This document shows, in pieces, positions 11,347-64,000 of a DNA stretch of 64,000 nt. The DNA is taken from sequence record PQ356294.1. The stretch is one strand, 5' to 3'. Positions within the stretch are counted from its first letter, which is position 1. Each line of letters starts with the position of its first letter. Source of the DNA: Escherichia phage Ec_YwIITB1. Under the pieces are notes generated by a model. That model was not told the origin of the DNA. It was given only the letters and a program-made list of their open reading frames with translations, and ran no database searches. The position numbers were made by a program, and so were the translations under genes.

Positions 11347-12908
11347 ATGACTATCAAAACTAAAGCTGAACTTTTGAACAAATGGAAGCCATTACTGGAA
11401 GGTGAAGGTTTACCGGAAATTGCTAATAGCAAACAAGCGATTATCGCTAAAATCTTTGAAAACCAGGAAAAAGATTTCCAGACAGCTCCAGAGTACAAAG
11501 ACGAAAAAATCGCCCAGGCGTTCGGTTCTTTCTTAACAGAAGCTGAAATCGGTGGTGACCACGGTTACAACGCTACTAACATTGCTGCTGGTCAGACTTC
11601 TGGCGCAGTAACTCAGATTGGCCCAGCTGTTATGGGTATGGTACGTCGTGCTATTCCTAACCTGATTGCTTTCGATATTTGCGGTGTTCAGCCGATGAAT
11701 AGCCCGACTGGCCAGGTATTTGCACTGCGTGCAGTATATGGTAAAGACCCAATCGCTGCTGATGCTAAAGAAGCATTCCACCCAATGTATGGTCCAGATG
11801 CAATGTTCTCTGGTCAGGGTGCTGCTAAGAAATTCGCGCTAGCACACAAACTACTGTAAGTTGGAACCATTTACACCTATTTCTTCCAGGAAACTGGTAC
11901 TGTATATCTGCAAGCTACCTCTAGTTAAAGCAAATTGATACAAGTGCTTCTGACGCAGCTAAATTAGATGCTGAAATTAAGAAACAAATGGAAGCTGGCG
12001 TATTGGTAGAAATCGCTGAAGGTATGGCTACTTCTATCGCTGAACTTCAGGAAGGTTTCAACGGTTCTACCGATAACCCATGGAATGAAATGGGATTCCG
12101 TATCGATAAACAAGTTATCGAAGCTAAATCTCGTCAGCTGAAAGCTGCTTACTCTATCGAATTAGCACAAGACCTCCGCGCTGTTCACGGTATGGATGCT
12201 GATGCTGAACTGTCTGGTATTCTGGCTACCGAAATCATGCTGGAAATCAACCGTGAAGTTGTTGATTGGATTAACTACTCAGCTCAGGTTGGTAAATCTG
12301 GTATGACCCTGACTCCGGGTTCTAAAGCTGGTGTATTTGACTTCCAGGATCCGATTGATATTCGCGGTGCTCGCTGGGCAGGTGAATCCTTTAAAGCTCT
12401 GTTGTTCCAGATTGACAAAGAAGCAGTTGAAATTGCTCGTCAGACCGGTCGTGGTGAAGGTAACTTCATTATCGCTTCCCGTAACGTAGTTAACGTTCTG
12501 GCTTCAGTTGATACTGGCATTTCTTATGCTGCACAGGGTCTGGCTACCGGCTTTAACACTGATACTACCAAGTCAGTATTTGCTGGTGTTCTGGGTGGTA
12601 AATACCGTGTATACATCGACCAGTATGCTAAACAGGATTATTTCACTGTAGGTTATAAAGGTCCGAACGAAATGGATGCTGGTATTTACTACGCTCCATA
12701 TGTAGCTCTGACTCCGCTGCGTGGTTCCGATCCGAAGAACTTCCAACCGGTAATGGGATTCAAAACTCGTTACGGTATCGGTATCAACCCATTTGCAGAA
12801 TCCGCTGCTCAGGCTCCGGCTTCTCGCATCCAAAGCGGTATGCCTTCTATTCTTAATAGCCTTGGTAAAAACGCTTACTTCCGCCGTGTATATGTTAAAG
12901 GTATCTAA
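11347..12908 (+). CDS. 23: major capsid protein gp23; reading frame interrupted between ~11836 and ~11930
   Basis: 170-aa ORF 11347-11859 matches gp23 N-terminus, 306-aa ORF 11988-12908 matches C-terminus; in-frame stops at 11857 and 11926 with three frame changes between. Confidence 0.85.
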
Positions 12909-12923
12909 TCTTTGACGATTTAA

Positions 12924-12939
12924 GGGACCTTCGGGTCCC
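12924..12939 (+). terminator. hairpin after gene 23, followed by T-rich tract
   Basis: GGGACCTTCGGGTCCC. Confidence 0.5.
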
Positions 12940-12956
12940 TTTAGTTGTTTTTATGG

Positions 12957-12964
12957 TATAAATA
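12957..12964 (+). promoter_or_regulatory. late promoter for gene 24
   Basis: TATAAATA 28 nt before ATG 12992. Confidence 0.6.
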
Positions 12965-12991
12965 AATCATATAAACCAAAAGGAAAGCGCA

Positions 12992-14275
12992 ATGGCTAAA
13001 ATCAACGAACTTCTGCGCGAATCAACCACAACGAATAGCAACTCAATCGGTCGCCCAAATCTCGTTGCTTTGACTCGCGCTACCACTAAATTAATATATT
13101 CTGACATTGTAGCAACGCAAAGAACTAATCAACCTGTTGCTGCTTTTTATGGTATCAAATACCTTAACCCGGATAACGAATTTACATTTAAAACTGGTGC
13201 TACTTACGCCGGCGAAGCTGGGTATGTAGACCGAGAACAAATCACAGAATTAACAGAAGAGTCTAAATTAACTCTCAATAAAGGCGATTTATTCAAATAT
13301 AATAATATCGTTTATAAAGTATTAGAAAATACACCATTTGCTGATATTGAAGAAAGTGATTTAGAATTAGCTCTTCAGATTGCAATTGTTCTTTTAAAGG
13401 TTCGTCTATTTTCTGATGCTGCAGTAACAAGCAAATTTGAAAGCTCTGATAGTGAAATTGCGGATGCTAGATTCCAGATTAATAAATGGCAAACCGCAGT
13501 TAAATCTCGTAAACTTAAAACTGGCATCACAGTCGAATTAGCACAAGATTTAGAAGCAAACGGATTCGATGCTCCTAATTTCTTGGAAGATTTGCTTGCA
13601 ACTGAAATGGCGGATGAAATCAATAAAGATATTTTACAGTCTTTGATTACAGTGTCAAAACGCTATAAAGTTACAGGAATTACTGATACTGGATTCATTG
13701 ATTTGAGTTATGCATCTGCACCTGAAGCTGGTCGTTCATTATACCGAATGGTATGTGAAATGGTTTCGCATATCCAAAAAGAATCAACTTATACTGCAAC
13801 GTTCTGTGTTGCTTCAGCTCGTGCCGCTGCGATTCTTGCTGCATCAGGTTGGTTAAAACATAAACCGGAAGATGATAAATATCTTTCACAAAATGCCTAC
13901 GGGTTCTTAGCTAATGGTTTACCGCTTTATTGCGATACCAACAGTCCATTAGATTATGTAATCGTTGGCGTAGTAGAAAATATCGGTGAAAAAGAAATTG
14001 TTGGATCAATTTTCTATGCTCCGTATACAGAAGGTCTTGACTTAGATGACCCTGAACATGTAGGTGCATTTAAAGTTGTAGTTGATCCAGAAAGTTTGCA
14101 GCCATCTATCGGTTTATTAGTTAGATATGCTTTATCTGCAAATCCTTACACTGTAGCAAAAGATGAAAAAGAAGCAAGAGTAATTGATGGTGGAGATATG
14201 GATAAAATGGCGGGTCGTTCAGATTTGTCTGTTTTATTAGGTGTTAAGCTACCAAAAATTATCATTGATGAATAA
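12992..14275 (+). CDS. 24: capsid vertex protein gp24
   Basis: 427-aa ORF; T4 homolog; late promoter upstream. Confidence 0.95.
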   Translation: MAKINELLRESTTTNSNSIGRPNLVALTRATTKLIYSDIVATQRTNQPVAAFYGIKYLNPDNEFTFKTGATYAGEAGYVDREQITELTEESKLTLNKGDLFKYNNIVYKVLENTPFADIEESDLELALQIAIVLLKVRLFSDAAVTSKFESSDSEIADARFQINKWQTAVKSRKLKTGITVELAQDLEANGFDAPNFLEDLLATEMADEINKDILQSLITVSKRYKVTGITDTGFIDLSYASAPEAGRSLYRMVCEMVSHIQKESTYTATFCVASARAAAILAASGWLKHKPEDDKYLSQNAYGFLANGLPLYCDTNSPLDYVIVGVVENIGEKEIVGSIFYAPYTEGLDLDDPEHVGAFKVVVDPESLQPSIGLLVRYALSANPYTVAKDEKEARVIDGGDMDKMAGRSDLSVLLGVKLPKIIIDE

Positions 14276-14280
14276 AACAA

Positions 14281-14303
14281 AGGGACCGAAAGGTCCCTTT
14301 TTT
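14281..14303. terminator. bidirectional intrinsic terminator between convergent genes 24 and rnlB
   Basis: AGGGACCGAAAGGTCCCT flanked by A-run and T-run. Confidence 0.6.
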
Positions 14304-14305
14304 AT

Positions 14306-15310
14306 TTAACTTACCAATTCAATCCAAGCCGGACGAAGTACATCTTGTACCATTTTAACTAATTCCTTCTTAATCAAAGAAGGATTATCCGCTTGAGTTA
14401 GAGTAATACCTTCACGAGAAGTTTCTTCCAAAATATCTTGAACCGTTAGCCCCATCACCTTTCCAAAATCTTTTGGACCAATTTCACCAATTTTAGAAAT
14501 AACGTTATTTACTCGGTTCAGTGTAACGTAACAAGCTAAAATTCCAAGCAATTTATTATCAGCTTCTGACAGTTCAACTTTAGCTTTAATAGGCTTATCA
14601 GACTTTTTCTTTTCACTAAATTTAGAGTTCTTGCATTTGATAGCTACGCGATTGCCGTTATGCATCCAAGAAGGATAACAAGGTTTCAATACATATCCTT
14701 CAGCGGTAAATACTTCGCCTTTTACTTCAGCATTCCAAACGCATTTATTTGCATCAACTAATCCAGCATGGTCTACCGTAAAATTATAATCCTGGACGAC
14801 AGAATCTAAATCATTTGGCAATTTAATAAGTTCTTCAAATTTACCGCGACCTAAAAGTGGAGCCATTTTAAATTTAAATGTATTACAGAATGATTCCATC
14901 ATATAATCATCGACATAAGTCACATCACCACTTTCTGTAGTAACAATAATGTCAAATACATAAAAATCTTTATCGCCATAATCGACATTCTTCTGAATGC
15001 CAGGTCCAGCGAATTCGCCAAAAACTTGATAAGATACAACCGCTGAAGTTTCCATAATTTCTTGTACTGCTTTAATGGAATCAGAGTAATTCTTCAAAAT
15101 AATTTCATACCCAAAGAAATCTTCAGCAGGAAGAATAGGACCAGTACGTTTAGCGCAAGTTACTTTATCACGCTCAATAATCAATGAGAAATTTGTGCCG
15201 TGAATCTTTTCACGAGCTACCCACTCCCCACCAGTCAATCCCAAGCTATAAAGTTTTTCAATGAATTTAGAATTGTAATGATTTTCAAGACTGCTATACT
15301 TTTTAAACAT
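14306..15310 (-). CDS. rnlB: RNA ligase 2 (RnlB)
   Basis: 334-aa ORF; nucleotidyltransferase motif KIHGTN; T4 homolog. Confidence 0.9.
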
Positions 15311-15319
15311 AATTAATCC

Positions 15320-15598
15320 TCAAAATGTAATTTCTAACCAATCACCATCACGCTGATCACTATTGACTTTAAAGCTAAATCCTTCTTTTCTCAGCCAATC
15401 ACCAATTTCTTCAGTAATCAATTTATCACGAGCAGTACAATAATAACTAAAATATGTTTTACCTTGTTCAGCTGCTTTATTAGCAAGTTCCGAAAAATCT
15501 TTAATAAAACACTCTAACTTAAACTGTTTACTTTTAAGTGCTTTTTCACGTAATTGATTAGCAAAAGATTCATTTTCATAAAGATCATACTGTTCCAT
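15320..15598 (-). CDS. hypothetical protein (24.2-like position)
   Basis: 92-aa ORF in rnlB-hoc interval. Confidence 0.6.
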   Translation of the reverse strand: MEQYDLYENESFANQLREKALKSKQFKLECFIKDFSELANKAAEQGKTYFSYYCTARDKLITEEIGDWLRKEGFSFKVNSDQRDGDWLEITF

Positions 15599-15601
15599 TT
15601 T

Positions 15602-15799
15602 TCACCTTTTATTAATATGTCTTTTTCTATAGACAACTTTTTCTCGAGTTTCAAATTTATTCTTAGCAGTCATAGCTCGAGCCCATAATACAGCCACTTC
15701 TTTCGCCTGTAAGTTCAATTCACGAGCAATTTCAATGAATGACTTTCCAGACTCATGAAGAGTAAACACCACAACCTCAGTTCTCATAATCAATCTCAT
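15602..15799 (-). CDS. hypothetical protein (24.3-like position)
   Basis: 65-aa ORF. Confidence 0.55.
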   Translation of the reverse strand: MRLIMRTEVVVFTLHESGKSFIEIARELNLQAKEVAVLWARAMTAKNKFETREKVVYRKRHINKR

Positions 15800-15866
15800 G
15801 TTATCGAGTTGATGCCATTATATACATCATTTTCTGAGTATGTTTTGTGTGCTTTCAAAATGAAGA

Positions 15867-15884
15867 AAGGGGCCGAAGCCCCTT
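15867..15884 (-). terminator. hairpin downstream of hoc
   Basis: AAGGGGCCGAAGCCCCTT. Confidence 0.4.
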
Positions 15885-15894
15885 ATGATTATGA

Positions 15895-17324
15895 TTATGG
15901 ATAGGTATAGATGATACCAGTTTCTAAAGCAGTTTTATGAATGATGTATCCATTGCGTGATTCTTGAACATCAACTTCTGGATAGTCTTTCATCATCTTC
16001 TGAAGAGTGTAACGATGCAGGTAGTATTTACTGTCTGGATCTTCAGTTTTCCAATCTTTACCTTCTTCGGTCATTTTTTGGATTTCATCCATAACCCACC
16101 AGCCGCACCAGATATAAGCCGAAGTACGATGTGGAAGAGGATGAACATAAGGCAATTCACCTTCTGGTTCCGGAGCAACTTTATCAGTTACCTGAACTTG
16201 GCCTGTTGCTTTAACTGTTTTACTATCATAGTCGGTTGCTGTAACGACAGCAGTAACTTCAATAGTTTGACTTCCAATAGATGAGGTGTCAACGGTGTAT
16301 ACATTAGTTGACCCTTCTACAGGAGAAGAATCTTTCTTCCATGAATAAGTAATTTGAGCTGCTTCAGGTGCTCCGTGACATTAGCCGTAAATGTAGCCGA
16401 AGCATCTTGCTGAACGTTAATAGAAGGAGGAGTCAATGTAACCTGTGGATTCATTGTCTTCTTATTAACTGTCAATGATACTTCATTAGAAGTAACTTCC
16501 TTTGCATCATAATTTTCAGCCGTTACTTGGGCTACACACTTAACTGTTTTAGCTCCAACTGTGGTAGGAGTATAGTTAAATGTAGTAGTAGTTTCTCCAT
16601 CGACCAGAGAACCGTCAACATACCACTGATACGTAGCAGACGCTCCTGGTGGCTGTGAAGCCAAGGTAGCAGTAAATTGAACTGGGGTTCCAATAACTCC
16701 TGCTGGAGGATTAGCAGGAGTTACGGCTAACGTAGTTGTCTGTGTTTTCTTATTAACAGTCAGTGACACTTCATTAGAAGTAACTTCCTTTGCATCATAA
16801 TCTGTCGCGGTTACTTGAGCTACACACTTAATTGTTTTAACTCCGCTTGCGTCAGGAGTGTAATTGAATGTAGTGCCAGTTGCTTCGCCCACAGGAGAAC
16901 CGTCAACGTGCCATTGATACGTAGCGTTTGCACTTGGTGGCTGTGAAGCTAAGGCAGCGGTAAATTCAATTGGAGTTCCAATCACTCCAGCATCAGGGCT
17001 ACCAGGAGTTACAGCTAAAATAGTTGTTTGTGTCTTATTTTGAACCGTGATAGTTGTCGTAGTTTCTGCTGTTTCAGGTTCAGGTTCAGATTCAGATTCT
17101 GGAACTGTATTTGTTGCAACGACTTTAATAGTCTTTTGACCTGCAGGTCCTTTTAATACATAGCCAAAAGTTGCCGCTTCTCCATCTTGCGGAACATTAT
17201 CTACACTCCAAGCATAGGTAATAGTTCCATCTCCAGTTTCACCACTGGGTGTAGCAGTAAACTGCTTGGTTTCATCAATAACTCCTGTTGGGGTTTTAGG
17301 AGTTATATCAACTGTAAAAGTCAT
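15895..17324 (-). CDS. hoc: Hoc outer capsid protein with extra tandem Ig-like domain; frameshifted near 16371-16375
   Basis: 335-aa ORF 16317-17324 (starts MTFTVDITPKT) plus 86-aa ORF 15895-16155 matching the Hoc C-terminus (ends GIIYTYP); alternate frame between them reads the expected Hoc sequence. Confidence 0.85.
16464..17039 (-). repeat. tandem in-frame duplication (~288 bp unit) encoding two Ig-like domains within hoc
   Basis: Two consecutive ~96-aa blocks (ILAVTPGSPDAGVIGTPIEFTA... and TLAVTPANPPAGVIGTPVQFTA...) with matching DNA repeat; boundaries approximate. Confidence 0.7.
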
Positions 17325-17333
17325 AAGTTATCC

Positions 17334-18014
17334 TTATTTTAATGTTACGAAAGAAGAATTACGTGTTTCACGAATTAGAACTGATCCGTCGCGATTAATG
17401 TAATAAATTAAGCTAAATAAAGTTTGATGCGCAGACGCATGCTCAAAACTGGTTGGGCGAGATTTCCAATCTGGAGTTTCAGCAATCCATTGGTAAATCC
17501 ACCAAGGAACAGTGCAGAATCCTGGATTTTTTCCAATCAGCTGAAGATTCGGGCTAAAGTTTTCCGGAAGAGTAAATACAGACGGCTTTTCAGATTCAAT
17601 AATCTCAGCTACAGCCTGCTCGAATTTTTCTTCAACAAAAGGAGTATCTTCAATCAAAACATCGGTATTTTCAGGAATTTTATCCATTTCTACTACTTCA
17701 ATTTTAATGTCAGATTTAACCGGAGAATCAATCAGAAGTGCTGCCTCTGGATTGACTTCTTCATCGTCATATTTTAATCCGTCTGCGGCATCAGCAGCAT
17801 CAATTAAGTCTTTAATAGATAACCCATCAGTCTCTGGCATAGGTTCACTAGCGAGCTTCTGGAGGGCTTCTTCAATATCAACAACGATATTATCAAAAGA
17901 TTTATTCTTTTTGACTTTTATACCAAACTGTTCAGCATATTCAGCTAATTTAGCTTTAGCTTCTTTATTATCATCAAGAGCCTTCAGCTCTGCAATATAA
18001 TCTTTATCTATCAT
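17334..18014 (-). CDS. inh: Inh, inhibitor of prohead protease
   Basis: 226-aa ORF; T4 homolog. Confidence 0.85.
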   Translation of the reverse strand: MIDKDYIAELKALDDNKEAKAKLAEYAEQFGIKVKKNKSFDNIVVDIEEALQKLASEPMPETDGLSIKDLIDAADAADGLKYDDEEVNPEAALLIDSPVKSDIKIEVVEMDKIPENTDVLIEDTPFVEEKFEQAVAEIIESEKPSVFTLPENFSPNLQLIGKNPGFCTVPWWIYQWIAETPDWKSRPTSFEHASAHQTLFSLIYYINRDGSVLIRETRNSSFVTLK

Positions 18015-18027
18015 AATATTTCCTCAG

Positions 18028-18035
18028 TATAAATA
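18028..18035 (+). promoter_or_regulatory. late promoter for uvsW
   Basis: TATAAATA 30 nt before ATG 18065. Confidence 0.6.
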
Positions 18036-28182: not shown

Positions 28183-28204
28183 GGGGACCGGTCCCCATAT
28201 TTTT
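28183..28204 (+). terminator. intrinsic terminator after gene 54
   Basis: GGGGACCGGTCCCC followed by T-run. Confidence 0.55.
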
Positions 28205-28501: not shown

Positions 28502-28554
28502 CCTCATGTTATGTCAGTAAGACTATTATAACACAGCACGAGGGACTTGTAAAC
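28502..28554 (-). promoter_or_regulatory. sigma70-like early promoter plus leader and RBS (cassette copy A)
   Basis: Reverse strand TTTACA, 17-nt spacer, TATAAT, then GAGG and ATG 28493; 50 of 53 nt identical to 44191-44243. Confidence 0.55.
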
Positions 28555-30611
28555 TACATCTTGAACTTTTTAGACATTCCGTTGATGTTAACCAAAGAAG
28601 CCAAGATTTGAGAAACTTCGTTTTCCTCTTCTTTTGATTCTTCTACAAGGAATTGATTAAACCCAGCCATTGGACGAACTTCACCAGTTTCCATTAGATG
28701 ATCGCCATCATATACCGATTCTTCTAATTGTTCAGAAGGAGGAACGATTGTGCCTTCAATTAGATACTTGTTATAAGCAGTTTCTTTCATCATGTACGTG
28801 CTCACTTTATTAATCTTCAGCAAAATTCCACGTGGTAGAATAACTTCAGCTTCTGATGGAAATCCTGATAAATGACCTGGAACGATAACTTTGATTCGCT
28901 CAGCCCCTTTAATTACCATACCTACGCTAGCTTCAGCATCTTCATTAGCATATGCAGAATGACTACCCATATGCATTAAATCTTCAGCATCAACAGAACC
29001 TTCTCCTTCACCAGAAAATACTGCGCCGGAATCATCTAGAGCCATATAGTTTTTACCATGCTCACCGAAGATATTTGGTTTAAGCGATGTTGATACGAAG
29101 TTCTTGAAATAGAACATTTTATTTTCAATATTATGGCGTAAAGTTTTAAAAGTAACTTCTTGTCCACGATAAAGCGTAATTCCCGGAGGAAGAACTGAAC
29201 CTTTGGCAAAGGCAGAATCCAGCGTCTCGATGTGTTTAATAGCTCGTTCCATATATTCTTCACGGGTAGAATCTGGTTTACCCAAGAGGAACGAGTTCAT
29301 TTCAACATATGAATCTGCACAATAATCTTCAATTACAACAGACTCAGCCTGAGTTAATCCTTTTGGAGTTACTTCAGTGCTTGCGTATTCATATGCCTGA
29401 GCAGCAGATTCATTAATCAATTTATAAATGCCATTCATGACAAATTGAATAATAGCTACCTTTTCGTCTGGCGTAGCTTTAGAACCTTTAACTAAATCAT
29501 TGATAATTTTCTTAATAACATCAAAGCTATTAGAAATATTAATGTCAGCGAGATCGCTCAAAATTTTATCGGTTTTATAATCAAAAAATTCTTTATTCTT
29601 TAAATATTCTTGAGAACCTTGATATGTTATATCGCTCTGCAGTCTGATAGACGGATCGCGTAAACGTGCATGGGCCAATGCAATATGATTTCGGAGGCTT
29701 TCTAGTTCATAATCGTTAGATTTAAAACGAGAAGCACTTCTCATACCACCGATAGCTCCTTTGCTGAAGTTGGAACCAATCTGAATAACGCCAGAGTTCA
29801 TTGGTCCTTCTGCTTTATATACCGGAACTTTAGATTCAAACTCTTGATATTTCTTGGCGGCGAAGCTATCGCCCTGAAGTGAAGCATCGACAGTAGAATA
29901 TTGAGCTTGCGCTGCCAATCGACGACTAATTTTAGTTTTCTGAATAACAGCTTGATCCGTGCGCTTATCATTTTCTAAAGCAATAGAAGCAGCAACAGCA
30001 ACAGCTTTAGGAACAGCATTACCTGTTTTAACATCTACATAAACATCACCAACCTTTGATTCAACTTTTGTGAATAACTCAGTTGAAATAGGAGGTACAC
30101 CTGGAATGTCTTCTAAATTGGCATTTTTACGGTAAACCATAATATATGCATACTTTTTATCATAATCCCAGATTTCCTTTAAAAGAACATATCGACCTGC
30201 TCCTTTAGTACGTACTAAACGGTCAGCAATAACTTGCATCTGACGAGCTGCGCCATTTGTTTTACTTTTTAGTACGCGGAATAGGCATGCATCAATTTTA
30301 TACTGTTTCATTGTTTGAAGAGCAGTATCAAAAACCGCATTAATGACACCAATTGGATTTCCACCCAAGTTTTTAAGTTTAACTAATGATAGTTTCTCAT
30401 TAACACCTATCATTACGATATGCATCATTTTATCGCCTGGCTTAACGTTTTTATTTGTATCACCGCCAGAGGTGTATGTACAAAATCTAAATCCAGGAAG
30501 CACACTTTCTTCGCCGGCTTGAATAGCAAAAATTTGAGGTATTTTATGCTTAGGATTTAAGTTAACAACCGGCGCCGAAGCGCCGTCAAATAATTCTGTA
30601 ATAAGTTCCAT
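28554..30611 (-). CDS. Alt-like ADP-ribosyltransferase, second paralog
   Basis: 685-aa ORF; N-terminal ~230 aa closely similar to the adjacent Alt; ART-like motifs YRGQ, FVSTSL, EAEVILPRG. Confidence 0.8.
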   Translation of the reverse strand: MELITELFDGASAPVVNLNPKHKIPQIFAIQAGEESVLPGFRFCTYTSGGDTNKNVKPGDKMMHIVMIGVNEKLSLVKLKNLGGNPIGVINAVFDTALQTMKQYKIDACLFRVLKSKTNGAARQMQVIADRLVRTKGAGRYVLLKEIWDYDKKYAYIMVYRKNANLEDIPGVPPISTELFTKVESKVGDVYVDVKTGNAVPKAVAVAASIALENDKRTDQAVIQKTKISRRLAAQAQYSTVDASLQGDSFAAKKYQEFESKVPVYKAEGPMNSGVIQIGSNFSKGAIGGMRSASRFKSNDYELESLRNHIALAHARLRDPSIRLQSDITYQGSQEYLKNKEFFDYKTDKILSDLADINISNSFDVIKKIINDLVKGSKATPDEKVAIIQFVMNGIYKLINESAAQAYEYASTEVTPKGLTQAESVVIEDYCADSYVEMNSFLLGKPDSTREEYMERAIKHIETLDSAFAKGSVLPPGITLYRGQEVTFKTLRHNIENKMFYFKNFVSTSLKPNIFGEHGKNYMALDDSGAVFSGEGEGSVDAEDLMHMGSHSAYANEDAEASVGMVIKGAERIKVIVPGHLSGFPSEAEVILPRGILLKINKVSTYMMKETAYNKYLIEGTIVPPSEQLEESVYDGDHLMETGEVRPMAGFNQFLVEESKEEENEVSQILASLVNINGMSKKFKM

Positions 30612-30614: not shown

Positions 30615-32669
30615 TTATCCTTGAACGAACTTGTAAGGCATGTTTGTAATATCTATGCAAGACGCAATAATTCCAAGAGATGATTCTACTTTTTGTTTAA
30701 CATTTGATGAAACAAATGATGCAAAGTCAACTCTGTCTTCTATTTCAATATCATCTGTCATTGCAACTACTTCACCAGTTTCCATTAGACGATCACCGTC
30801 ATAAATTACTGATTCGGTGAGTTCTTCGGTAGTCATAACTTCAGCTTGAATAAGCTTGTTGTTAGTTTTAGCTGTTCCATCATTGTAAGATGCGTCGGTT
30901 ATTTTATTGACTTTGACCATCAATCCACGCGGCAAAATGACTTCCATTTCATTTGAAGGCGCTAAACTTCCACCTGGTAAAACAACGTTGACTTTATCAG
31001 CCCCAGTAATAACCCATCCAATTCCAACTAAATTATCGCTAGAATTAACAAGTCCTTCATCGTTTTTATCGATAGAAATGTTTAGACGCTTTTCGTCTGG
31101 TAAAACACCCACAGCTGAATCAGTCATCCAAGTACCAAAAATGTTTGGATATAATGATGTTGATACAAAATTTCTAAAATAAAAAACTCGATTTTTTACC
31201 AATGCTTCATATATTGAAGGAGCAGTCATGCTTTGAGCACGATAAACTGTAATGCCTTCTGGTATACGGTCACCATTTTCAAAGGCTGAATCTAAATTAT
31301 TTATCGCAGATTCAATTTCTTTTTCACTCATTACCTCATATCGTTCTGGATTATATAATCCCAAAAGAGCATTATTCATGTCTACATATCCTGAACCTAC
31401 GTATTCACGAATTCCGCGTTTTTGTGCCGGTGTGTATTTAGATGAATCTTTATTTTCGACTATAGAATGCAATGACCATCCAACGGTAAGAGCATATCCA
31501 CGTAATTCTCTTCGAATAATCTTTGTTTTTATTGCATTCCAAGAATTTTGCACTAACTCATTCGCAGCATCTTGATTTAAATGCGAATGCTTGTTAATAT
31601 TTCTTTCTAACCAAGCACCTTTATATTTTTCTAAAGTATCATCAACTATAGAAGCAATAGTTTCTAAAGTTTTTATTGAAGTAATAGATTCTTTTCGTAA
31701 TCTTTCTAAAGCTTTATTTTTTATTTCTGCATTAACATCAGATTCTTTATCTTCAGGAATTATAGAAGCTTCTCTGAATGCCATTCCAGCTGTAACACTA
31801 TTAAGAGCATTCTCTAATGCAAATCCTGAAGTAGAAATAACAGTTAATTCGTTAGCATCAGAAATTAAAGGCGCGTCAGCGGGTTTATTTAATTCTGCTG
31901 CTGAAGCCTCAAATTTTTGAAACATTGGTGTTTCAAATCTAGAAGATTCTAATGATTGACTTTGTGCAATTGCTCTACGGGAAATTTTAACTTTAACGAT
32001 TACAGCTTGGTCAGAACGTTTATCGTTTTCTTGCGCAATAGATGCAGCAATGGCCTCATTTTTAGTTACTTGAGCTCCGGTATCTTTATTGATATAAACA
32101 TCGCCGACTTTCGATTCAACTTTAGTAAAGAGCTCTGTACTAATTTCAGGAACTCCTGGAATGTCTTCTAATGATACATTTTTGCGATGTATAAGAATAT
32201 ATGCATACTTTTTATCGTAATCCCAGAGTTCCTTAAGAAGGACGTATCTGCCACCTGAACGACTACGGATAAGTCTATCAGCAATAAGTTGAATTTGACG
32301 AGCTTGACCAGCAGTTTTAGACTTAAGAATACGGAGCATGCAGGCATCAATTTTATACTGACGCATCGTTTGCATTGCAACAGTAAAAACTGAATTGATA
32401 TAATTAATTGGGCTTGGACCGAGACCTTTTAATTTAGCGATTGAACCTTTAGCAGTTAATGTAAAAGGAACAATATGCATCATTTTATCGCCCATCTTTA
32501 AATCGCGATTAGTATCACCTCCAGATGTGTAGGTACATAAACGAAAACCTGGTTGTTCAATTGCGTCATCAACATGAACTGAAAAAATTTGCGGTATTTT
32601 CTTCTTTGGATTTAAGTTTGTAATCGGAAGAGTAGTATCTTCGTCAAATAATTCTGTAATGAGTTCCAT
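30615..32669 (-). CDS. alt: Alt ADP-ribosyltransferase (virion-packaged)
   Basis: ORF open from 32672 (MMELITE); second ATG 32669 better spaced from GAGGA; motifs YRAQ, FVSTSL, EMEVILPRG; late promoter upstream. Confidence 0.85.
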   Translation of the reverse strand: MELITELFDEDTTLPITNLNPKKKIPQIFSVHVDDAIEQPGFRLCTYTSGGDTNRDLKMGDKMMHIVPFTLTAKGSIAKLKGLGPSPINYINSVFTVAMQTMRQYKIDACMLRILKSKTAGQARQIQLIADRLIRSRSGGRYVLLKELWDYDKKYAYILIHRKNVSLEDIPGVPEISTELFTKVESKVGDVYINKDTGAQVTKNEAIAASIAQENDKRSDQAVIVKVKISRRAIAQSQSLESSRFETPMFQKFEASAAELNKPADAPLISDANELTVISTSGFALENALNSVTAGMAFREASIIPEDKESDVNAEIKNKALERLRKESITSIKTLETIASIVDDTLEKYKGAWLERNINKHSHLNQDAANELVQNSWNAIKTKIIRRELRGYALTVGWSLHSIVENKDSSKYTPAQKRGIREYVGSGYVDMNNALLGLYNPERYEVMSEKEIESAINNLDSAFENGDRIPEGITVYRAQSMTAPSIYEALVKNRVFYFRNFVSTSLYPNIFGTWMTDSAVGVLPDEKRLNISIDKNDEGLVNSSDNLVGIGWVITGADKVNVVLPGGSLAPSNEMEVILPRGLMVKVNKITDASYNDGTAKTNNKLIQAEVMTTEELTESVIYDGDRLMETGEVVAMTDDIEIEDRVDFASFVSSNVKQKVESSLGIIASCIDITNMPYKFVQG

Positions 32670-32692
32670 CATATCCTCTCTAGTGTTTATTC

Positions 32693-37567: not shown

Positions 37568-37878
37568 TGCCTGCTAAAGCCCTCAAGGGGGACATAGGTT
37601 TTTGAATATTTAACGACCAGGATAACCATAAACCCGTCAACATACCTTATAGCTCTTATCTGTTGCACACCGTTAGCTTAAAGGTTCCGGGTTCGATTTC
37701 TCGAGGATAAGATATATACTGATGGATATATAGGCCTTGAGGCGTACTCCCGATTAGCCATCACCTCGGGGTAGCATGCACTTGCCGCTATAAAATAACA
37801 TTCAAGAGGTACACCGTAAAACAAAGTTCGACGGCTCCTCGATTTTAGCTCACACTAAGGCAGTGAATCTCCAATAAA
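37568..37878. other. ORF-free, relatively GC-rich structured region; candidate non-coding RNA or regulatory element
   Basis: Stops in all six frames; 8-bp long-range complement CCTCAAGG (37581-37588) / CCTTGAGG (37735-37742); several local palindromes. Confidence 0.3.
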
Positions 37879-45861: not shown

Positions 45862-47036
45862 TTAAAAATATTTTTTAAAACTCATCATAACTTTATCATC
45901 AACATCATTATCAATCTGTGCTACAAGATAAGATGACAGTTCTACTTCTTGCGGCGCGGATTGAACATTATCAGAATTAAGATATTCACGAATCCAAGGA
46001 TACGGGTGTTTAACCGGAGCATCGGTAATTGGGCATGGAAGACCACACTGTTTCATACGAGATACAGTTAAGTAATCAATAAAGTTCCACATGCTATTTG
46101 TATTTAATCCAGGAACATCGCCATCTTTAAATAAATGAACTGCCCAGTCTTTTTCTTGGCGGTTAACTTCCATGAAAATATCAACTGCTTCTTGTTCACA
46201 CTCTTGGGCGATTTTAACCCATTCATCACCATCAGTGCCAAGTTGAAGTTGACGAATAATATATTGGGTGCCTTTAAGGTGAAGCTGTTCATCACGTGCA
46301 ATGAACTTCATAATCTTGGCATTACCTTCCATGATTTCCATGTTTTTATGGAAGTTAAAGGTACATGCGAAAGATACGTAAAAACGAATAGCTTCCAGTG
46401 CGTTGATTACATGCAGACAAAGGTAAAGAGAACGCATTAGTTCACGTTTCCAATACATTTCATGCTCTATGGCATCTTTAATATCATCTTCGTCTGCGTT
46501 AATTTCTTTTTGGTACTCAATATCAGCTTTAGCATTCTGCCACGAGTTTTCTCAATAACATCATCATAGTAACGACCAATAGATTCAGCACGTTTCATGA
46601 TAGCTTTATCTAATACAATCTCATCAAATACTTTTGACGGATCAGTATAAAGATTCCGCATGATATGAGTGTATGAACGACTGTGAATAGTTTCGCTAAA
46701 AGTCCATGTAGCAACCCATGTATCAAGGCTTGGGTCTGAAATTAACGACATAAGTACAGCAGACGGTGCACGACCCTGAATGCTATCCAAAAGTGATTGA
46801 TACTTCAGGTTATTAGTAAAAATATCTTGCTGATACTGAGGAAGCTTGTTAAATTGTGCAGCATCCATCATCAAGTTTACTTCTTCAGGACGCCAGAAAA
46901 ATGACAACTGCTTTTCGGTTAAATCTTCAAAAACTTTATGGCGTTGAATATCATAACGCGCAATACCAAGACCTGAACCGAAGAACATAGGTTCTTTTAA
47001 AACATCAACTGGATTTGTATTAAAAACTGTGCTCAT
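45862..47036 (-). CDS. nrdB: ribonucleotide reductase small subunit NrdB, intron-less; frameshifted near 46539-46546
   Basis: 189-aa ORF 46467-47036 (N-terminus) and 198-aa ORF 45862-46458 (C-terminus) in different frames, 8 nt apart; alternate frame reads through the junction. Confidence 0.85.
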
Positions 47037-50770: not shown

Positions 50771-51795
<1,025 letters not shown>

Positions 51796-52102: not shown

Positions 52103-52488
52103 CTACTTTTTGAAAGTTTTTCGCAAAAGTTCAATGATTTCATCTACATTGTTTTCATCAACAATGCAGTGAATTTTTGTTACGCCAGAAACCTTGTCTT
52201 CGACTTCATCTTCTTCGGAAGTCGGTTCTTTATACTCACGAAAACAATGAAATTCGTCTTCGCAAATTTCTAAAAGTCTATCTTTGAGGTAAAAATGCTT
52301 TCCGTTAGCGCACAAATGATTTCGGTTACATAATCAAAGCCATCTAAATTTGATATTGATTTAACTTCAAACCAACCACCATTTTCTTGAATGATGCCGA
52401 CCATATTAGTATTTGATGAACTAATATCAATGAAAGATTTAATACGATGTATCAATAAGTCTTGGAACAAGTTCATACTTTTTGCCAA
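52103..52488 (-). CDS. hypothetical protein (frd.3 position), frameshifted near 52302-52314
   Basis: 72-aa and 70-aa ORFs overlapping in different frames; together one ~128-aa product. Confidence 0.55.
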
Positions 52489-52539
52489 TATACATTACGT
52501 TTTCCTCATTTTAACGGGGCTGTAATAGCCCTTTGATAA

Positions 52540-52788
52540 TTATTGTTCAATCAGTCCCATGTAAAATTCTGCGTCTTCAGAATCCATGCCATCACAATAT
52601 TCATTAGCCATAAAGCGGGTGAGATCTTCAAGAGGACCTTCAATAATGATTTGAATACTCCAAAACTTAGAATCTTGCACGCTTGTGATACTAAGTTCAG
52701 GATAACGATTACGAATAATTTCTTCGAAATATTCGTAATCAATAACATCAATATCAACTTTAGCCATATTGTTTTCCTCTTTAATCAT
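52540..52788 (-). CDS. hypothetical acidic protein
   Basis: 82-aa ORF. Confidence 0.6.
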
Positions 52789-52859: not shown

Positions 52860-52889
52860 TGAAATAAAAAGGGGACCTCTAGGGTCCCC
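52860..52889 (-). terminator. intrinsic terminator after gene 32
   Basis: GGGGACCCTAGAGGTCCCC followed by T-rich tract on reverse strand. Confidence 0.55.
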
Positions 52890-60055: not shown

Positions 60056-60063
60056 GAGGTATT

Positions 60064-61179
60064 ATGGAAAAATTTATGGCAGAGTTTGGACAAGGATATG
60101 TCCAAACGCCATTTTTATCGGAAAGCAATTCAGTAAGATATAAAATAAGCATAGCGGGCTCTTGCCCGCTTTCTACTGCAGGGCCATATGTTAAATTTCA
60201 GGATAATCCCGTTGGAAATCAAACATTTAGTGCAGGTCTTCATTTAAGAGTTTTTAACCCTTCTACCGGAGCATTAGTTGATAGTAAGTCATATGCTTTT
60301 TCTGCTTCAAACAATACAACATCTGCCGCTTTTGTCAGTTTTATGAATTCTTTGACGAATAACAGACTTGTTGCTATATTAACTAACGGAAAGGTTAATT
60401 TTCCTCCTGAAGTGGTATCTTGGTTAAGGGGCGCAGGAACTTCAGTTTTTCCATCAGATTCAGTATTGTCAAGATTCGACGTATCATATGCTGCTTTTTA
60501 CACTTCTTCTAAAAGAGCTATTGCATTAGAGCATGTTAAACTGAGCAACAGAAAAAGCACAGATGACTATCAAACTATTTTAGATGTGGTGTTTGATAGT
60601 TTAGAAGACGTCGGAGCTACGGGATTTCCTAAAAGAACATACGAAAGTGTCGAGCAATTTATGTCAGCGGTTGGTGGAACTAACAACGAAATTGCGCGAC
60701 TGCCAACTTCAGCTGCTATAAGTAAATTATCTGACTATAATTTAATCCCTGGTGATGTTCTTTATCTTAAAGCACAGTTATATGCTGATGCTGATTTACT
60801 TGATCTTGGAACTACAAATATATCTATCCGTTTTTATAATGCATCAAATGGATATATTTCTTCGACACAGGCTGAGTTTACCGGGCAAGCTGGGTCTTGG
60901 GAATTAAAGGAAGATTATGTAGTTGTTCCTGAAAACGCTGTCGGATTTACTATATATGCGCAGAGAACTGCTCAAGCTGGTCAAGGCGGAATGAGGAATT
61001 TAAGCTTTTCTGAAGTGTCAAGAAATGGAGGTATTTCGAAACCCGCCGAATTTGGCGTCAACGGCATTCGCGTTAATTATATCTGTGAATCGGCTTCACC
61101 TCCAGATATAATGGTACTTCCTACGCAAGCCTCTTCTAAAACTGGCAAAGTGTTTGGGCAAGAATTTAGAGAAGTATAA
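60064..61179 (+). CDS. 35: long tail fibre hinge protein gp35
   Basis: 371-aa ORF; T4 homolog. Confidence 0.9.
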   Translation: MEKFMAEFGQGYVQTPFLSESNSVRYKISIAGSCPLSTAGPYVKFQDNPVGNQTFSAGLHLRVFNPSTGALVDSKSYAFSASNNTTSAAFVSFMNSLTNNRLVAILTNGKVNFPPEVVSWLRGAGTSVFPSDSVLSRFDVSYAAFYTSSKRAIALEHVKLSNRKSTDDYQTILDVVFDSLEDVGATGFPKRTYESVEQFMSAVGGTNNEIARLPTSAAISKLSDYNLIPGDVLYLKAQLYADADLLDLGTTNISIRFYNASNGYISSTQAEFTGQAGSWELKEDYVVVPENAVGFTIYAQRTAQAGQGGMRNLSFSEVSRNGGISKPAEFGVNGIRVNYICESASPPDIMVLPTQASSKTGKVFGQEFREV

Positions 61180-61184
61180 ACTGA

Positions 61185-61207
61185 GGGAGCCTTCGGGTTC
61201 CCTTTTT
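61185..61207 (+). terminator. intrinsic terminator after gene 35
   Basis: GGGAGCCTTCGGGTTCCC followed by TTTTT. Confidence 0.55.
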
Positions 61208-61210
61208 CTT

Positions 61211-61218
61211 TATAAATA
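61211..61218 (+). promoter_or_regulatory. late promoter for gene 36
   Basis: TATAAATA 24 nt before ATG 61242. Confidence 0.6.
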
Positions 61219-61241
61219 ATATTAAAATAAAGGGGCATATA

Positions 61242-61913
61242 ATGGCTGATTTAAAAGTAGGTTCAACTGTGGGTGGATCTGTCATTTGGCATCAAGGAAA
61301 TTTTCCATTGAATTCAGCCGGTGACGATGTACTCTACAAATCATTTAAAATATATTCAGAATATAATAAACCGCAGGCAGTTGATAACGATTTCGTTTCT
61401 AAAGCTAATGGCGGTACGTATTTAAATAAAGTAATTTTTAATAAAGGAATGACTGTTCCCGGTGCAGGGTCAGCTGTAAACAATACAAACCAGTGCGGTA
61501 TTTATCCAGGTAATGGCGATGCAGCTACTTTTGCTACAGCAAATATTGATATTGTTTCATGGTATGGTATTGGTTTTAAATCATCACAGGGTTCAGCAGG
61601 TAGAACTGTAGTAATTAACACGCGAAATGGAGATATTAGCTCAAAGGGTGTAATTGAAGCATCACAAATACGCGCAACTTCATTATCTCCAGTAAATAAT
61701 TATGACCTTACACGGAAAGATTATGTCGATGGAGCAATAAATATTGTTACAGCAAACGCAAACTCTAGAGTTTTGCGTAAAGGTGACACCATGACAGGTA
61801 ACTTAACAGCACCAAACTTTTTCTCGCAGAATCCTGCGTCTCAACCCTCACACGTTCCGCGATTTGACCAAATCGTGATTAAGGATTCTGTTCAAGATTT
61901 CGGCTATTATTAA
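61242..61913 (+). CDS. 36: long tail fibre distal connector gp36
   Basis: 223-aa ORF; late promoter and terminator upstream. Confidence 0.9.
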   Translation: MADLKVGSTVGGSVIWHQGNFPLNSAGDDVLYKSFKIYSEYNKPQAVDNDFVSKANGGTYLNKVIFNKGMTVPGAGSAVNNTNQCGIYPGNGDAATFATANIDIVSWYGIGFKSSQGSAGRTVVINTRNGDISSKGVIEASQIRATSLSPVNNYDLTRKDYVDGAINIVTANANSRVLRKGDTMTGNLTAPNFFSQNPASQPSHVPRFDQIVIKDSVQDFGYY

Positions 61914-61921
61914 GAGGACTT

Positions 61922-64000
61922 ATGGCTACTTTAAAACAAATACAATTTAAAAGAAGCAAAATTGCAGGTCAGCACGTCCTGCTGCTTCAGTATTAGCCGA
62001 AGGTGAATTGGGTATTAATTTAAAAGACCGTGTACTTTTTACTAAAGATGACCAAGGAAATATTATTGATCTGGGTTTTGCTAAAGGCGGTAGCATTGAC
62101 GGGAATGTTATTCATATAGGAAACTATAATCAAACTGGTGATTATACTTTAAATGGCACCTTCACTCAGACAGGTAATTTTAATTTAATCGGTATTGCTC
62201 GAGTAACTCGCGATATTATTGCCGCCGGGCAGATTATGACCGAAGGCGGAGAACTTATTACAAAAAGTTCAGGTACATCACATGTTCGTTTTTTCGATAG
62301 CAATAGCCGCGAACGCGGAATCATTTATTCACCGGCTAATGATGGATTAACTACACAAGTACTTAATATCAGGGTTCAAGACTACGCCGCTGGTAGCGAA
62401 AGCACCTATGCATTTTCAGGCAATGGCTTATTTACTTCACCTGAAGTATCAGCATGGAAATCTATGTCAACTCCTCAGATTTTGACCAACAAAGTCATTA
62501 CTAATAATAAATCTACAGGTGATTATGACATTTATTCGATGGCAGATAATGTTCCACTGTCTGAAAGCACTACTGCTATTAATCATCTCCGTGTCATGCG
62601 TAATGCAGTCGGTTCTGGCATTTTCCATGAAGTTAAAGATAATGATGGAATAACTTGGTACAGCGGAGATGGGCTAGACGCTTATCTTTGGTCATTTACA
62701 TGGAGCGGCGGAATTAAATCGAGTCACTCAATTTCTATCGGTTTAACACCTGGCAATAAAGATTATTCAATACTAGGACCATCTAGTATTGCTTTAGGGG
62801 ATAATGATACTGGATTTAAATGGCACCAGGATGGATATTATTTCAGCGTCAATAATGGAACGAAAACATTTTTATTTAGTCCTAGCGAAACAACTAGCCT
62901 AAGAAAATTTGTAGCTGGATATTCTACTAACGGAACCGATTTAACTACTCCTCCTACTGAAAACTATGCTCTCGCTACTGTTGTTACATATCATGATAAT
63001 AACGCGTTTGGAGATGGTCAGACTCTTTTGGGATATTATCAAGGCGGTAATTATCATCATTATTTCCGCGGTAAGGGTACTACAAACATTAATACTCACG
63101 GCGGTTTGTTAGTTACTCCAGGTAATATTGATGTTATTGGCGGTTCTGTTAATATAGATGGTAGAAATAATTCTTCTACACTAATGTTTAGAGGTAACAC
63201 AACTGGTAGTAGTTCAGTTGATAATATGACAATTTCCGTATGGGGTAACACGTTTACTAATCCTAGTGTAGGTAATCGTAAAAATGTCATGGAAATTTCT
63301 GACGCAACTAGTTGGATGAGCTATATTCAAAGACTTACTACCGGTGAAGTAGAAATGAACGTTAACGGTTCATTTGAATCATCTGGTGTTACTGCTGGAA
63401 ATAGAGGAGTTCACACAACAGGTGAAATTTCATCTGGGGCCGTGAATGCGCTTCGCATTTGGAACGCAGATTATGGTGCCATTTTCCGTCGTTCAGAAAA
63501 CAGTCTTCATATTATTCCAACTGCCTATGGTGAAGGCAAAAATGGCGATATCGGTCCACTTCGTCCGTTTAGTATGTCTTTAGATACAGGTAAGGTTGTT
63601 ATTCCTGACCTAGATTTGAGTCATACAACTTTTGCTGAAAATGGTTTTATTAAATTCGGTGGGCATGGTGCTGGTGCCGGTGGTTATGATATTCAATACG
63701 TCCAAGCAGCTCCTGTTTTCCAAGAAATTGATGATGACGCGGTAAGTAAATATTATCCTATTGTTAAGCAGAAATTCTTACAAGGAAAAGCTGTTTGGTC
63801 TTTAGGCACTGAAATTAATTCCGGGACTTTTGTTTTACATCATTTAAAAGAAGATGGTTCACAAGGCCATACATCAAGATTTAATGCTGACGGTACAGTT
63901 AATTTCCCTGATAATGTTCAGGTTGGCGGTGGTGAAGCTACTATTGCTCGAAATGGTAATATCTGGTCTGATATTTGGAAATCGTTTACTTCAGCAGGAG
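61922..64000 (+). CDS. 37: long tail fibre distal subunit gp37, N-terminal ~690 codons (3' end outside window); frameshifted near 61967-61980
   Basis: ATG 61922 reads MATLKQIQFKRSKIAG then stops at 61994; frame -1 continues ARPAASVLAEGELGINLKD... open to window end. Confidence 0.85.

Follow-up and report, generated by a model that had tools for sequence, protein, structure and literature searches.

Do the frame disruptions scattered over otherwise conserved genes of a T4-like phage belong to the living phage, to its sequencing reads or to the way in which its sequence was put together? This question is raised by the 64,000-nt stretch of PQ356294.1 (Escherichia phage Ec_YwIITB1) that was analysed here as a whole (the window), a Tequatrovirus (T4-like) segment that runs from gene 13 to gene 37 and shows 96-97.6% identity to known phages. 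A sequence-only reading of the window had reported six frame-disrupted genes, too many to be expected, and had ascribed them to 1-nt indels, often in short homopolymers or dinucleotide repeats, left by homopolymer-prone sequencing chemistry or an unpolished assembly.

We searched the window by tblastn with the proteins of Shigella phage pSs-1, T4, ZCEC15 and UGKSEcP1 and found frame changes in genes 23, hoc, nrdB, frd, frd.2 and 37, all of them within a few bases of the positions reported before and with the protein match resuming in another frame past each break, as the sequence-only reading had described. The other ~75 genes each gave a single full-length match in a single frame. The lesions amount to a net -4 in gene 23, -1 in hoc, -4 plus a substitution in nrdB, -4 in frd, +13 and -7 in frd.2 and +2 in gene 37. 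Private indels were counted by a net-length scan against five comparison genomes, as a stricter test, which demanded private deletions in one and the same alignment column, found zero because the aligners differ in where they put gaps. Length differences other than multiples of three that set the window apart from all five comparison genomes were present at 10 places, as compared to 1-2 places each in pSs-1, ZCEC15, UGKSEcP1 and sb3, which were scanned equivalently as controls, indicating that the frame breaks indeed outnumber chance expectation. For private length changes of any length the counts were 14 in the window and 2-4 in the controls.

Gene 23 (11347-12908, plus strand), encoding the major capsid protein, was delimited by tblastn with pSs-1 and T4 gp23. 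As written it consists of a 170-aa ORF (11347-11859) and a 306-aa ORF (11988-12908), so that gp23 ends after 170 of 521 residues; residues 1-194 of the pSs-1 and T4 proteins match frame 1 and residues 166-521 frame 3. Comparison with relatives and an exact-block map placed the damage in a patch at 11836-11927 (plus strand), where the frame path runs 1 to 3 to 1 to 3 with switches at about 11838, 11859 and 11924, in agreement with the three sites reported earlier, and where two in-frame stops occur (TAA at 11857-11859, TAG at 11922-11924). The patch is net -4 (201 nt in the window, 205 nt in all listed relatives), which resolves into -6/+2 relative to one type of allele and -10/+4/+2 relative to a second. 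Positions 11838-11851 are the exact T4/pSs-1/sb3 allele at offset +10; the PYps32T/UGKSEcP1 allele is matched at offset +6 over 11858-11918 and at offset +4 from 11928 onward. On either side the identity to relatives is 98-100%, and none of the matches listed exceeds 89% identity across the lesion region, in which the changes CAC to TAT (His to Tyr) and ACT to ACC occur in no known allele.

The hoc gene (15895-17324, minus strand; head outer capsid protein) is split at about 16372 according to tblastn, residues 410-568 of UGKSEcP1 Hoc being 100% identical in frame -2 and the upstream part lying in frame -3. Alignment of the alleles located the lesion, 1 nt short, to 16372-16377 (minus strand), at the junction of GGTGC and TCCGT, the window reading GC-TCCGT and the natural alleles GC-ATCCGT or GC-TCCAGT. 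The region measures 102 nt in all 15 best matches listed of 622 records and 101 nt in the window, and the G at about 16377 is present in no known allele. Gene 37, encoding the distal subunit of the long tail fibre, was identified by tblastn at 61922-64000 (plus strand) and continues past the window end; as written, gp37 terminates 24 codons after the start at 61922. Here the allele alignment revealed two additional nucleotides (TC) at 61969-61971 (plus strand): the window reads GG-TCAGCA-CG and the alleles GG-AGCA-CG or GG-TCAA-CG, with exact agreement to the sb3/UGKSEcP1 allele through 61971 and, from that position onward, to the pSs-1 allele in a register shifted by 2 nt. The region spans 109 nt in all 8 best matches listed of 771 records and 111 nt in the window, and the nearest relative switches at the lesion.

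In nrdB (45862-47036, minus strand; ribonucleotide reductase small subunit), which as written forms ORFs of 189 and 198 aa, tblastn matched residues 1-165 in frame -3 (99.4% identity to UGKSEcP1) and residues 167-392 in frame -2 (99.6% identity to pSs-1), with the frame changing at 46542/46543. The allele alignment shows a loss of 4 nt together with one substitution at 46542-46544 (minus strand), with CCA-CG-AG in the window and CCA-ATATCT-AG and CCA-TTCACG-GG in the alleles. The nearest relative switches exactly at this lesion, from pSs-1 on one side (100 nt, zero mismatches) to UGKSEcP1 on the other. The frd gene (50973-51550, minus strand, by tblastn; dihydrofolate reductase) is split into overlapping ORFs of 122 and 100 aa. 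Its lesion (51223-51246, minus strand) was defined by comparison with the otherwise near-identical UGKSEcP1/RB3 allele, relative to which CAGA (plus strand) is absent between 51223 and 51224, and a private base at 51246, 22 nt from the 4-nt loss, equals the aligned base of the divergent pSs-1-type allele. This is a plain 4-nt loss within an otherwise UGKSEcP1-like stretch, across which the nearest relative remains the same; a hybrid of alleles explains the frd lesion only partly. The substitution creates a GTCGAC site, and the loss and the nearby substitution both lie in copies of one 8-mer, CCAGAAAT, 31 nt apart.

The sixth disrupted gene had been taken for an frd.3-like ORF. The frame break near 52311 stands, yet the ORF (52103-52495, minus strand) is the frd.2 homologue by its match to Pfam FRD2 (E = 7e-21), and an intact frd.3 homologue is present at 52543-52767. 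Three-frame translation and the exact-block map show that frd.2 is a chimera of pSs-1-like, T4-like and again pSs-1-like sequence, with the middle ~140 nt out of frame. At the first joint (52447-52450, minus strand; exact-block map), which had escaped the sequence-only reading, a 5' end identical to pSs-1 meets the T4-like block with a 4-nt overlap; the offset of the window is 0 relative to pSs-1 for 52 nt and then -13 relative to T4, so that 13 nt of homologous sequence are kept from both alleles (+13). At the second joint (52310-52312, minus strand) the T4-like block passes into the pSs-1-like 3' part with a 3-nt overlap and a loss of 7 nt (-7), changing the frame at about 52311. Here, too, the nearest relative switches.

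Three further private indels, at 14298 (+1), 28190/28191 (-4) and 52866 (-1), are all located in intergenic terminators. In the terminator hairpin between genes 54 and alt.-3 (28184-28197) comparison with relatives, whose loops read GAAA, TTTC or TTTT, revealed that the entire 4-nt loop is absent and GGGGACC directly adjoins GGTCCCC. The other two are changes in run length, the T-run after the gene 24 terminator (14298-14303) being T6 here and T5 in all five relatives, and the A-run by the terminator downstream of gene 32 (52866-52870) being A5 here and A6 in relatives.

We audited all 1,156 homopolymer runs of at least 4 nt in the window (392 of them of at least 5 nt) against the five relatives and found two privately altered ones, namely these intergenic runs. 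None of the frame-breaking lesions falls in a run of at least four identical bases, and most are multi-base, contrary to the 1-nt homopolymer indels proposed before. The 341 private substitutions of the window are 80% synonymous and fall on third codon positions in 271 of 338 cases; those of the control genomes are 70-82% synonymous, and with this agreement there is no background of random error. The remainder of the window is thus clean, and with 1,154 of 1,156 runs unaffected, multi-base lesions and mostly synonymous substitutions the proposed cause is not upheld: we rejected homopolymer errors on the audit, and general sequencing noise on the spectrum of private substitutions. Read-level errors of 454, Ion Torrent or nanopore data, perhaps worsened by glucosyl-hydroxymethylcytosine, in an unpolished assembly are accordingly an improbable source of the lesions. 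The modified DNA of T-even phages is known to give some sequencing platforms trouble, there are indeed two private 1-nt changes within homopolymer runs (14298, 52866), and the shared 8-mer context of the frd loss and substitution could hint at a context-specific base-calling error. Such errors, however, do not account for lesions of -4, -4, -4, +2, +13 and -7 outside runs of four or more, nor for private substitutions that carry the signature of selection instead of noise; they also have no reason to favour sites that are polymorphic in other phages or to insert bases equal to another natural allele.

The position and make-up of the lesions point elsewhere. We defined a site as polymorphic where the other five phages differ by at least 3 changes per 8 nt and counted a lesion if it was at most 3 nt away. 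Ten of the 11 lesions lie at such sites, which cover 12.4% of the region (P = 8e-9), and so do 8 of 9 independent loci (P = 4e-7), an enrichment that by itself fits artefacts and real recombination scars equally, because natural indels favour hypervariable regions too. In gene 37, hoc, nrdB, the terminator loop, both joints of frd.2 and the gene 23 patch the flanks match different alleles out of register, or a half-converted state is seen. Among the matches listed (roughly 500-1,000 relatives matched) no other phage record shares a lesion. The exact gp23 and nrdB lesion sequences gave no match in IMG/VR, JGI metagenome contigs or GTDB genome contigs, and 16-mers of the gene 37, nrdB and frd lesions occur at 38 loci in IMG/VR, none of them T4-like. 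Neither the truncated gp23 nor the gp36 protein is on record. The disrupted genes do not resemble natural pseudogenes, as the lesions are private and their flanks retain 97-100% protein identity to intact orthologues. A single minimal repair restores full-length ORFs in hoc (one A inserted, opening the whole gene), nrdB (TTCA inserted, 392 aa) and frd (CAGA inserted, 193 aa), and the removal of 2 nt opens gene 37 to the window end.

On the strength of these sequence comparisons we consider it likely that the frame breaks are construction scars, produced by an alignment-based consensus across two natural alleles, and neither a feature of the living phage nor homopolymer read errors. Genes 23 and 37 encode essential structural proteins in T4. 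Since gp23 ends at residue 170 of 521 and gp37 at residue 24, the sequence as written cannot be that of a viable phage, and the earlier advice to distrust the affected genes before correction is sound, the truncations of gp23 and gp37 being best read as artefacts like the other lesions. As to the step at which the scars would have arisen, either the reads of two co-present T4-like phages may have been collapsed into one sequence, or the reads of one phage may have been laid on a draft or reference of another, pSs-1-like, phage. In both cases an aligner could render a dense multi-base allele block as a compensating pair of gaps, or out of register, and the consensus could then retain one half of the change, both halves or neither, which would leave a -1, +2 or -4 lesion or a block of one allele set into the other in a shifted register. 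Where alignment to a divergent reference is poor, spurious variants can be called, as has been documented (PMC3907024). Joints of this kind would not come from De Bruijn-graph assemblers, so that the explanation calls for a step based on alignment, overlap or polishing. A single pSs-1-like reference fits gene 37, nrdB, hoc, the terminator loop and the frd base at 51246, but does not cleanly fit the gene 23 patch and the frd.2 joints, and we thus do not commit to one pipeline. Moreover, a few lesion bases in gp23 and hoc match no known allele, suggesting that the true alleles may be novel and weakening a clean two-parent reconstruction.

The same hybrid make-up, including the switches of the nearest relative at nrdB, frd.2 and gene 37, would be expected of real recombination scars, formed in a mixed T-even infection by crossovers or heteroduplex repair between compensating changes, or by out-of-register joins at 3-4-nt microhomologies, and sequenced correctly, whether as the consensus of a population or as defective genomes that a co-infecting helper complemented. 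T-even phages recombine at very high rates, and as T4 can do without hoc, nrdB, frd and frd.2 under laboratory conditions, real lesions could persist in these four genes. We nevertheless regard recombination scars as unlikely. The essential genes 23 and 37 are present in one copy each in the window, homologous recombination keeps the register because the flanks are aligned, and some nine junctions falling by chance into intervals of a few bases in one genome are hardly to be expected; furthermore, hundreds of sequenced relatives (matches listed) and the contig collections searched lack every one of the lesions. That they represent a snapshot of recombination between diverged T-even phages before selection is very doubtful, but if true, half-converted compensated changes and microhomology joints would break genes such as 23 and 37, and dense compensated polymorphisms would constitute hybrid incompatibilities at the nucleotide level, restricting gene flow among T4-like lineages.

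Recoding by frameshifting or bypassing, damage by introns or homing endonucleases (nrdB, td), and engineering or mutagenesis are, taken together, extremely improbable, although T4 offers precedents with the translational bypass in gene 60 and with the introns and homing endonucleases that act on nrdB and td. Recoding would not be conserved, as the frames are uninterrupted at the lesion positions in all best-matching relatives listed, and in gene 23 the ribosome would have to shift three times within 90 nt and get past two stops; reading the lesion sequences by eye, we saw no evident slippery motif of the X XXY YYZ type. The nrdB lesion does adjoin a hypervariable block ~100-200 nt 5' of the T4 intron position, but it lies ~195 nt from that position, neither an intron nor an endonuclease gene is inserted, and both nrdB and td align collinearly with relatives that lack introns; damage by the nrdB intron or I-TevIII/MobE was therefore rejected. 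Engineering, CRISPR escape and acridine- or topoisomerase-type 4-nt deletions were considered because gp23, nrdB, frd and the terminator loop all show a net -4 and a GTCGAC site results from the frd substitution; we dropped them, as essential genes are affected and as mutagenesis or nuclease repair would not yield inserted or retained bases equal to alternative natural alleles.

If the lesions are consensus scars, as we favour, homopolymer polishing would not mend them; the issue would be a second phage or a foreign reference or draft, calling for strain-aware de novo reassembly. An annotation of the sequence in its present form would list genes 23, hoc, nrdB, frd, frd.2 and 37 as pseudogenes or split ORFs, with misleading consequences for phylogenies, pan-genome counts and any comparison of capsids or of tail fibres (host range). 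The tests used here, i.e. the private-substitution spectrum, the homopolymer audit, lesion enrichment at sites polymorphic among relatives and exact-block maps, can separate consensus scars from read noise without reads and could be used on other phage records.

Among known systems, the bypass of T4 gene 60 and programmed frameshifting likewise involve an interrupted frame in a T4-type gene, but the lesions described here are private and unconserved, have no evident slippery motif and in gene 23 combine several shifts with stops. Homopolymer indel errors of 454, Ion Torrent and nanopore reads also produce spurious frameshifts in conserved genes (PMC3907024); they are, however, ±1 nt, scattered and commonest in long runs, whereas the frame-breaking lesions here are multi-base and outside runs, with 1,154 of 1,156 runs intact. 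Artefacts of reference bias or of partially applied complex variants share the restriction to dense multi-base allele differences, the half-changes or reference-like bases (gene 37, hoc, nrdB, terminator loop, frd 51246), the accurate remainder of the genome and the uniqueness of the lesions to the record. They differ in that a simple skipped indel would be smaller and less chimeric than the frd.2 joints (+13, -7) or the gene 23 patch, and in that a few bases here match no known allele. Strain chimeras from co-assembly (haplotype collapse in mixed lysates or metagenomes) show the same switch of the nearest relative as nrdB, frd.2 and gene 37, and the same abutting of pSs-1-identical blocks with blocks closest to UGKSEcP1 or T4. 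Graph-based chimeras, however, switch within shared k-mers and keep the register, whereas the joints in the window have overlaps of 1-4 nt and are out of register, which argues for an alignment- or overlap-based consensus step.

The ORF map and similarity searches identify the window as a segment of a Tequatrovirus (T4-like) genome in which genes 13/14, 23, 24, hoc, uvsW, the baseplate genes, alt, 30, cd, pseT, 63, nrdB, nrdA, td, frd, 32 and 34-37 follow each other in this order. The nearest record is Escherichia phage vB_Eco_ZCEC15 for the first 25 kb (97.6%) and Shigella phage pSs-1 for the last 25 kb (96.1%); the window's own sequence is absent from the phage collection searched. The translation products of all annotated pSs-1 genes were aligned with the window by tblastn. 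About 75 genes matched once, over their full length and in one frame, mostly with 95-100% identity, and frame changes were detected in six, i.e. gene 23 (at 11838, 11859 and 11924), hoc (~16372), nrdB (46542/46543), frd (51223/51224), a small ORF (~52311) and gene 37 (61969-61970). These positions agree with those proposed in the sequence-only reading, including all three sites in gene 23, and the breaks in the same six genes were recovered with T4, ZCEC15 and UGKSEcP1 proteins. The small ORF, taken for frd.3-like in that reading, is the homologue of frd.2 (Pfam FRD2, E = 7e-21), and the frd.3 homologue is intact. As written, the sequence is predicted to encode only 170 of the 521 residues of gp23 and 24 residues of gp37.

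When the pSs-1 protein set was compared with T4, sb3, ZCEC15 and UGKSEcP1 in the same way, hardly any breaks were seen apart from the known introns and the remnant of alt in T4. A net-length scan against all five panel genomes (pSs-1, T4, sb3, ZCEC15 and UGKSEcP1) gave 10 length differences that are not a multiple of 3 for the window vs 1-2 for each of the four close controls (the panel except T4), and 14 private length changes of any size vs 2-4 in the controls. The confirmed breaks and the control counts together demonstrate that the observation is real and that six broken genes exceed the background, as had been supposed.

The lesions are, however, not the single-base homopolymer slips as which they had been described, most of them being multi-base. 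In gene 23 the affected stretch comprises 201 nt instead of the 205 nt found in every listed relative (net -4), and the frame order changes from 1 to 3, back to 1 and again to 3 within 90 nt; a 14-nt piece identical to T4, pSs-1 and sb3 (11838-11851) is embedded in flanks of the PYps32T/UGKSEcP1 type, with offsets of +10, +6 and +4. nrdB lacks 4 nt and carries one substitution, in frd the loss of 4 nt is accompanied by a substitution at a distance of 22 nt, hoc lacks 1 nt (GGTGC|TCCGT) and gene 37 has 2 extra nt. The private base at 51246 in frd is the base that the divergent pSs-1-type allele has in the aligned position. frd.2 has two joints: the 52 nt at its 5' end are those of pSs-1, next comes a T4-like block of ~140 nt shifted by +13, and then a pSs-1-like 3' part shifted by -7, the joints being overlaps of 4 nt and 3 nt. 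Minimal repairs restored full-length hoc, an nrdB product of 392 aa, an frd product of 193 aa and a gene 37 frame open to the window end, indicating one scar apiece in these four genes. Three further private indels lie in intergenic terminators, namely one extra T at 14298, the loss of a whole 4-nt hairpin loop at 28190/28191 and a missing A at 52866.

Within the gene 23 lesion patch, at 11878-11883, the window has a private double change from CAC to TAT (His to Tyr) in the otherwise invariant YTHFFQ motif. It is carried by none of the listed relatives (best identity over this stretch 95%, ~690 records matched) and is either a novel allele or a piece of the artefact. The hairpins at 14283-14297 and 28184-28197 have conserved stems, but related phages differ in the orientation of the 4-nt loop: some have GAAA and others its reverse complement TTTC, and the second loop of ZCEC15 is TTTT. 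The difference has the appearance of a natural loop-inversion polymorphism. The window itself carries a GAAA loop in its first hairpin and has lost the loop of the second.

To locate the lesions relative to natural variation we used pSs-1 as neutral coordinate system and defined a site as complex if at least one of the remaining four panel genomes had three or more changes per 8 nt relative to pSs-1. With a 3-nt margin such sites make up 12.4% of the region. They contain 10 of the 11 lesions (P = 8e-9), or 8 of 9 loci if gene 23 is counted once (P = 4e-7). At several complex sites the window is intermediate between two natural alleles: GG-TCAGCA-CG between GG-AGCA-CG and GG-TCAA-CG in gene 37, GC-TCCGT between GC-ATCCGT and GC-TCCAGT in hoc, CCA-CG-AG between CCA-ATATCT-AG and CCA-TTCACG-GG in nrdB, and no loop at all at 28190/28191, where the alleles have GAAA or TTTC. 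The gene 23 and hoc lesions also contain a few bases that are not found in any known allele. The nearest relative switches exactly at the nrdB, frd.2 and gene 37 lesions; in nrdB, 100 nt without a mismatch to pSs-1 (40 to UGKSEcP1) give way to sequence that is most similar to UGKSEcP1. The nrdB region 46445-46545 is a hypervariable block of ~100 nt in which ~40 of 100 positions distinguish UGKSEcP1, ZCEC15 and T4 from the pSs-1 type. It lies 100-200 nt 5' of the T4 group I intron position (~46345 in the window) and may be a co-conversion tract from intron or endonuclease homing.

The lesions were found in none of the listed relatives, and the best hits listed in every search had intact length (records matched: gp23 ~700, hoc 622, nrdB 1,012, frd 558, frd.2 476, gp37 771). 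The exact gene 23 and nrdB patterns did not occur in IMG/VR, JGI metagenome contigs or GTDB genome contigs, the IMG/VR matches of 16-mers from the gene 37, nrdB and frd lesions were all to unrelated contigs and due to chance, and neither the truncated gp23 nor the gp36 protein is on record.

Apart from the lesions the window is not generally error-prone. Its 341 private substitutions relative to the panel fall mainly on third codon positions (271 of the 338 in ORFs) and are 80% synonymous, compared with 80% for pSs-1, 82% for sb3 and 70-75% for ZCEC15 and UGKSEcP1 in the same test; random errors would lack such a signature of selection. Among 1,156 comparable homopolymer runs of at least 4 nt (392 of at least 5 nt), two showed a private length change, both intergenic. 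Given the homopolymer audit and the substitution spectrum, neither homopolymer-prone chemistry nor a noisy, unpolished assembly can be the main cause, which leaves from the sequence-only reading the attribution to an artefact. Read-level chemistry errors in general are highly improbable: both frd changes fall in copies of one 8-mer, which speaks for them, but this origin is contradicted by the homopolymer audit and the sizes of the lesions, by the clean substitution spectrum and by the bases that match natural alleles.

As two essential genes are broken and the lesions are private and unselected, whereas the other differences are under selection, the sequence as written does not represent a viable phage, and we infer that the lesions are probably an artefact and not a biological feature. 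Real recombination scars from a mixed infection would have a similar appearance and could survive in the dispensable hoc, nrdB, frd and frd.2, but they cannot explain the propagation of a genome in which genes 23 and 37 are disrupted, and they would need about nine chance junctions within intervals of a few bases, so that we regard this origin as unlikely. Programmed recoding, intron or endonuclease damage and engineering are not supported, since the frames are intact in relatives, gene 23 would require three shifts past two stops, inserted DNA is absent, and the nrdB lesion and the position of the T4 intron are ~195 nt apart. The dense polymorphisms, the allele pieces that were kept, duplicated or dropped, and the out-of-register overlaps of 1-4 nt point to an artefactual consensus formed by alignment across two alleles. 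Two T4-like phages in the sample might have been merged into a single sequence, or reads might have been placed on a draft or reference of another, pSs-1-like phage, and both scenarios fit; in either case compensating gap pairs would reach the consensus only in part. Spurious variant calls are known to arise from poor alignment with a divergent reference (PMC3907024). A de Bruijn-graph chimera is an unlikely route because it would switch inside shared k-mers and keep the register. Homopolymer polishing will consequently not repair this sequence; the suspect is a second haplotype or a foreign reference.

Several further length differences occur in the window. Relative to pSs-1, 44 nt (37823) and 21 nt (38228) are deleted in the intergenic/small-ORF region around rIII and gene 31, and 1-nt insertions are present at 37603 and 37618, where no pSs-1 gene is annotated. 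In gene 67, two in-frame 9-nt deletions relative to pSs-1 (9350-9425) affect the C-terminal acidic repeat of gp67, which comprises 79 aa vs 85 aa in pSs-1; this short form is natural, as the prohead core gene annotated there in ZCEC15 and in UGKSEcP1 is 240 nt long, like that of the window. T-runs in genes 24.2/24.3 vary among relatives at 15542 and 15607. At 15542 a run of four T in pSs-1 and sb3 truncates 24.2 to 33 aa, and the window has five T, as in phage T4, and an intact 24.2 ORF of 92 aa. At 15607 the window is one T short of pSs-1, phage T4 and sb3. Its match to the pSs-1 24.3 protein spans 55 residues, and those of ZCEC15 and UGKSEcP1 cover exactly these residues. The annotation of sb3 (PQ666541.1; L010) splits nrdB, the second alt and gene 34 into two or three ORFs each (L010 45955-47133, L010 30641-32695 and L011 6279-10148). 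This record may have problems of its own; its nrdB nonetheless aligns in a single frame by tblastn.

In comparison with T4, the free-standing homing endonuclease genes segD (23/24), segE (before uvsW), mobE (nrdB/nrdA) and segG (by 32) are absent across the window (1-64000), I-TevI and I-TevIII are likewise missing, and nrdB and td are intron-free. A 218-aa ORF without Pfam match lies between genes 18 and 19 (6273-6929, plus strand) and is found in pSs-1, sb3 and ZCEC15, with nothing above 60% identity in T4 and UGKSEcP1. Finally, the window has tandem full-length genes for Alt-like ADP-ribosyltransferases on the minus strand (28554-30611 and 30615-32672), the products of which comprise 685 aa each and are ~41% identical to each other, where T4 has a single alt and the short remnants alt.-1 and alt.-2.
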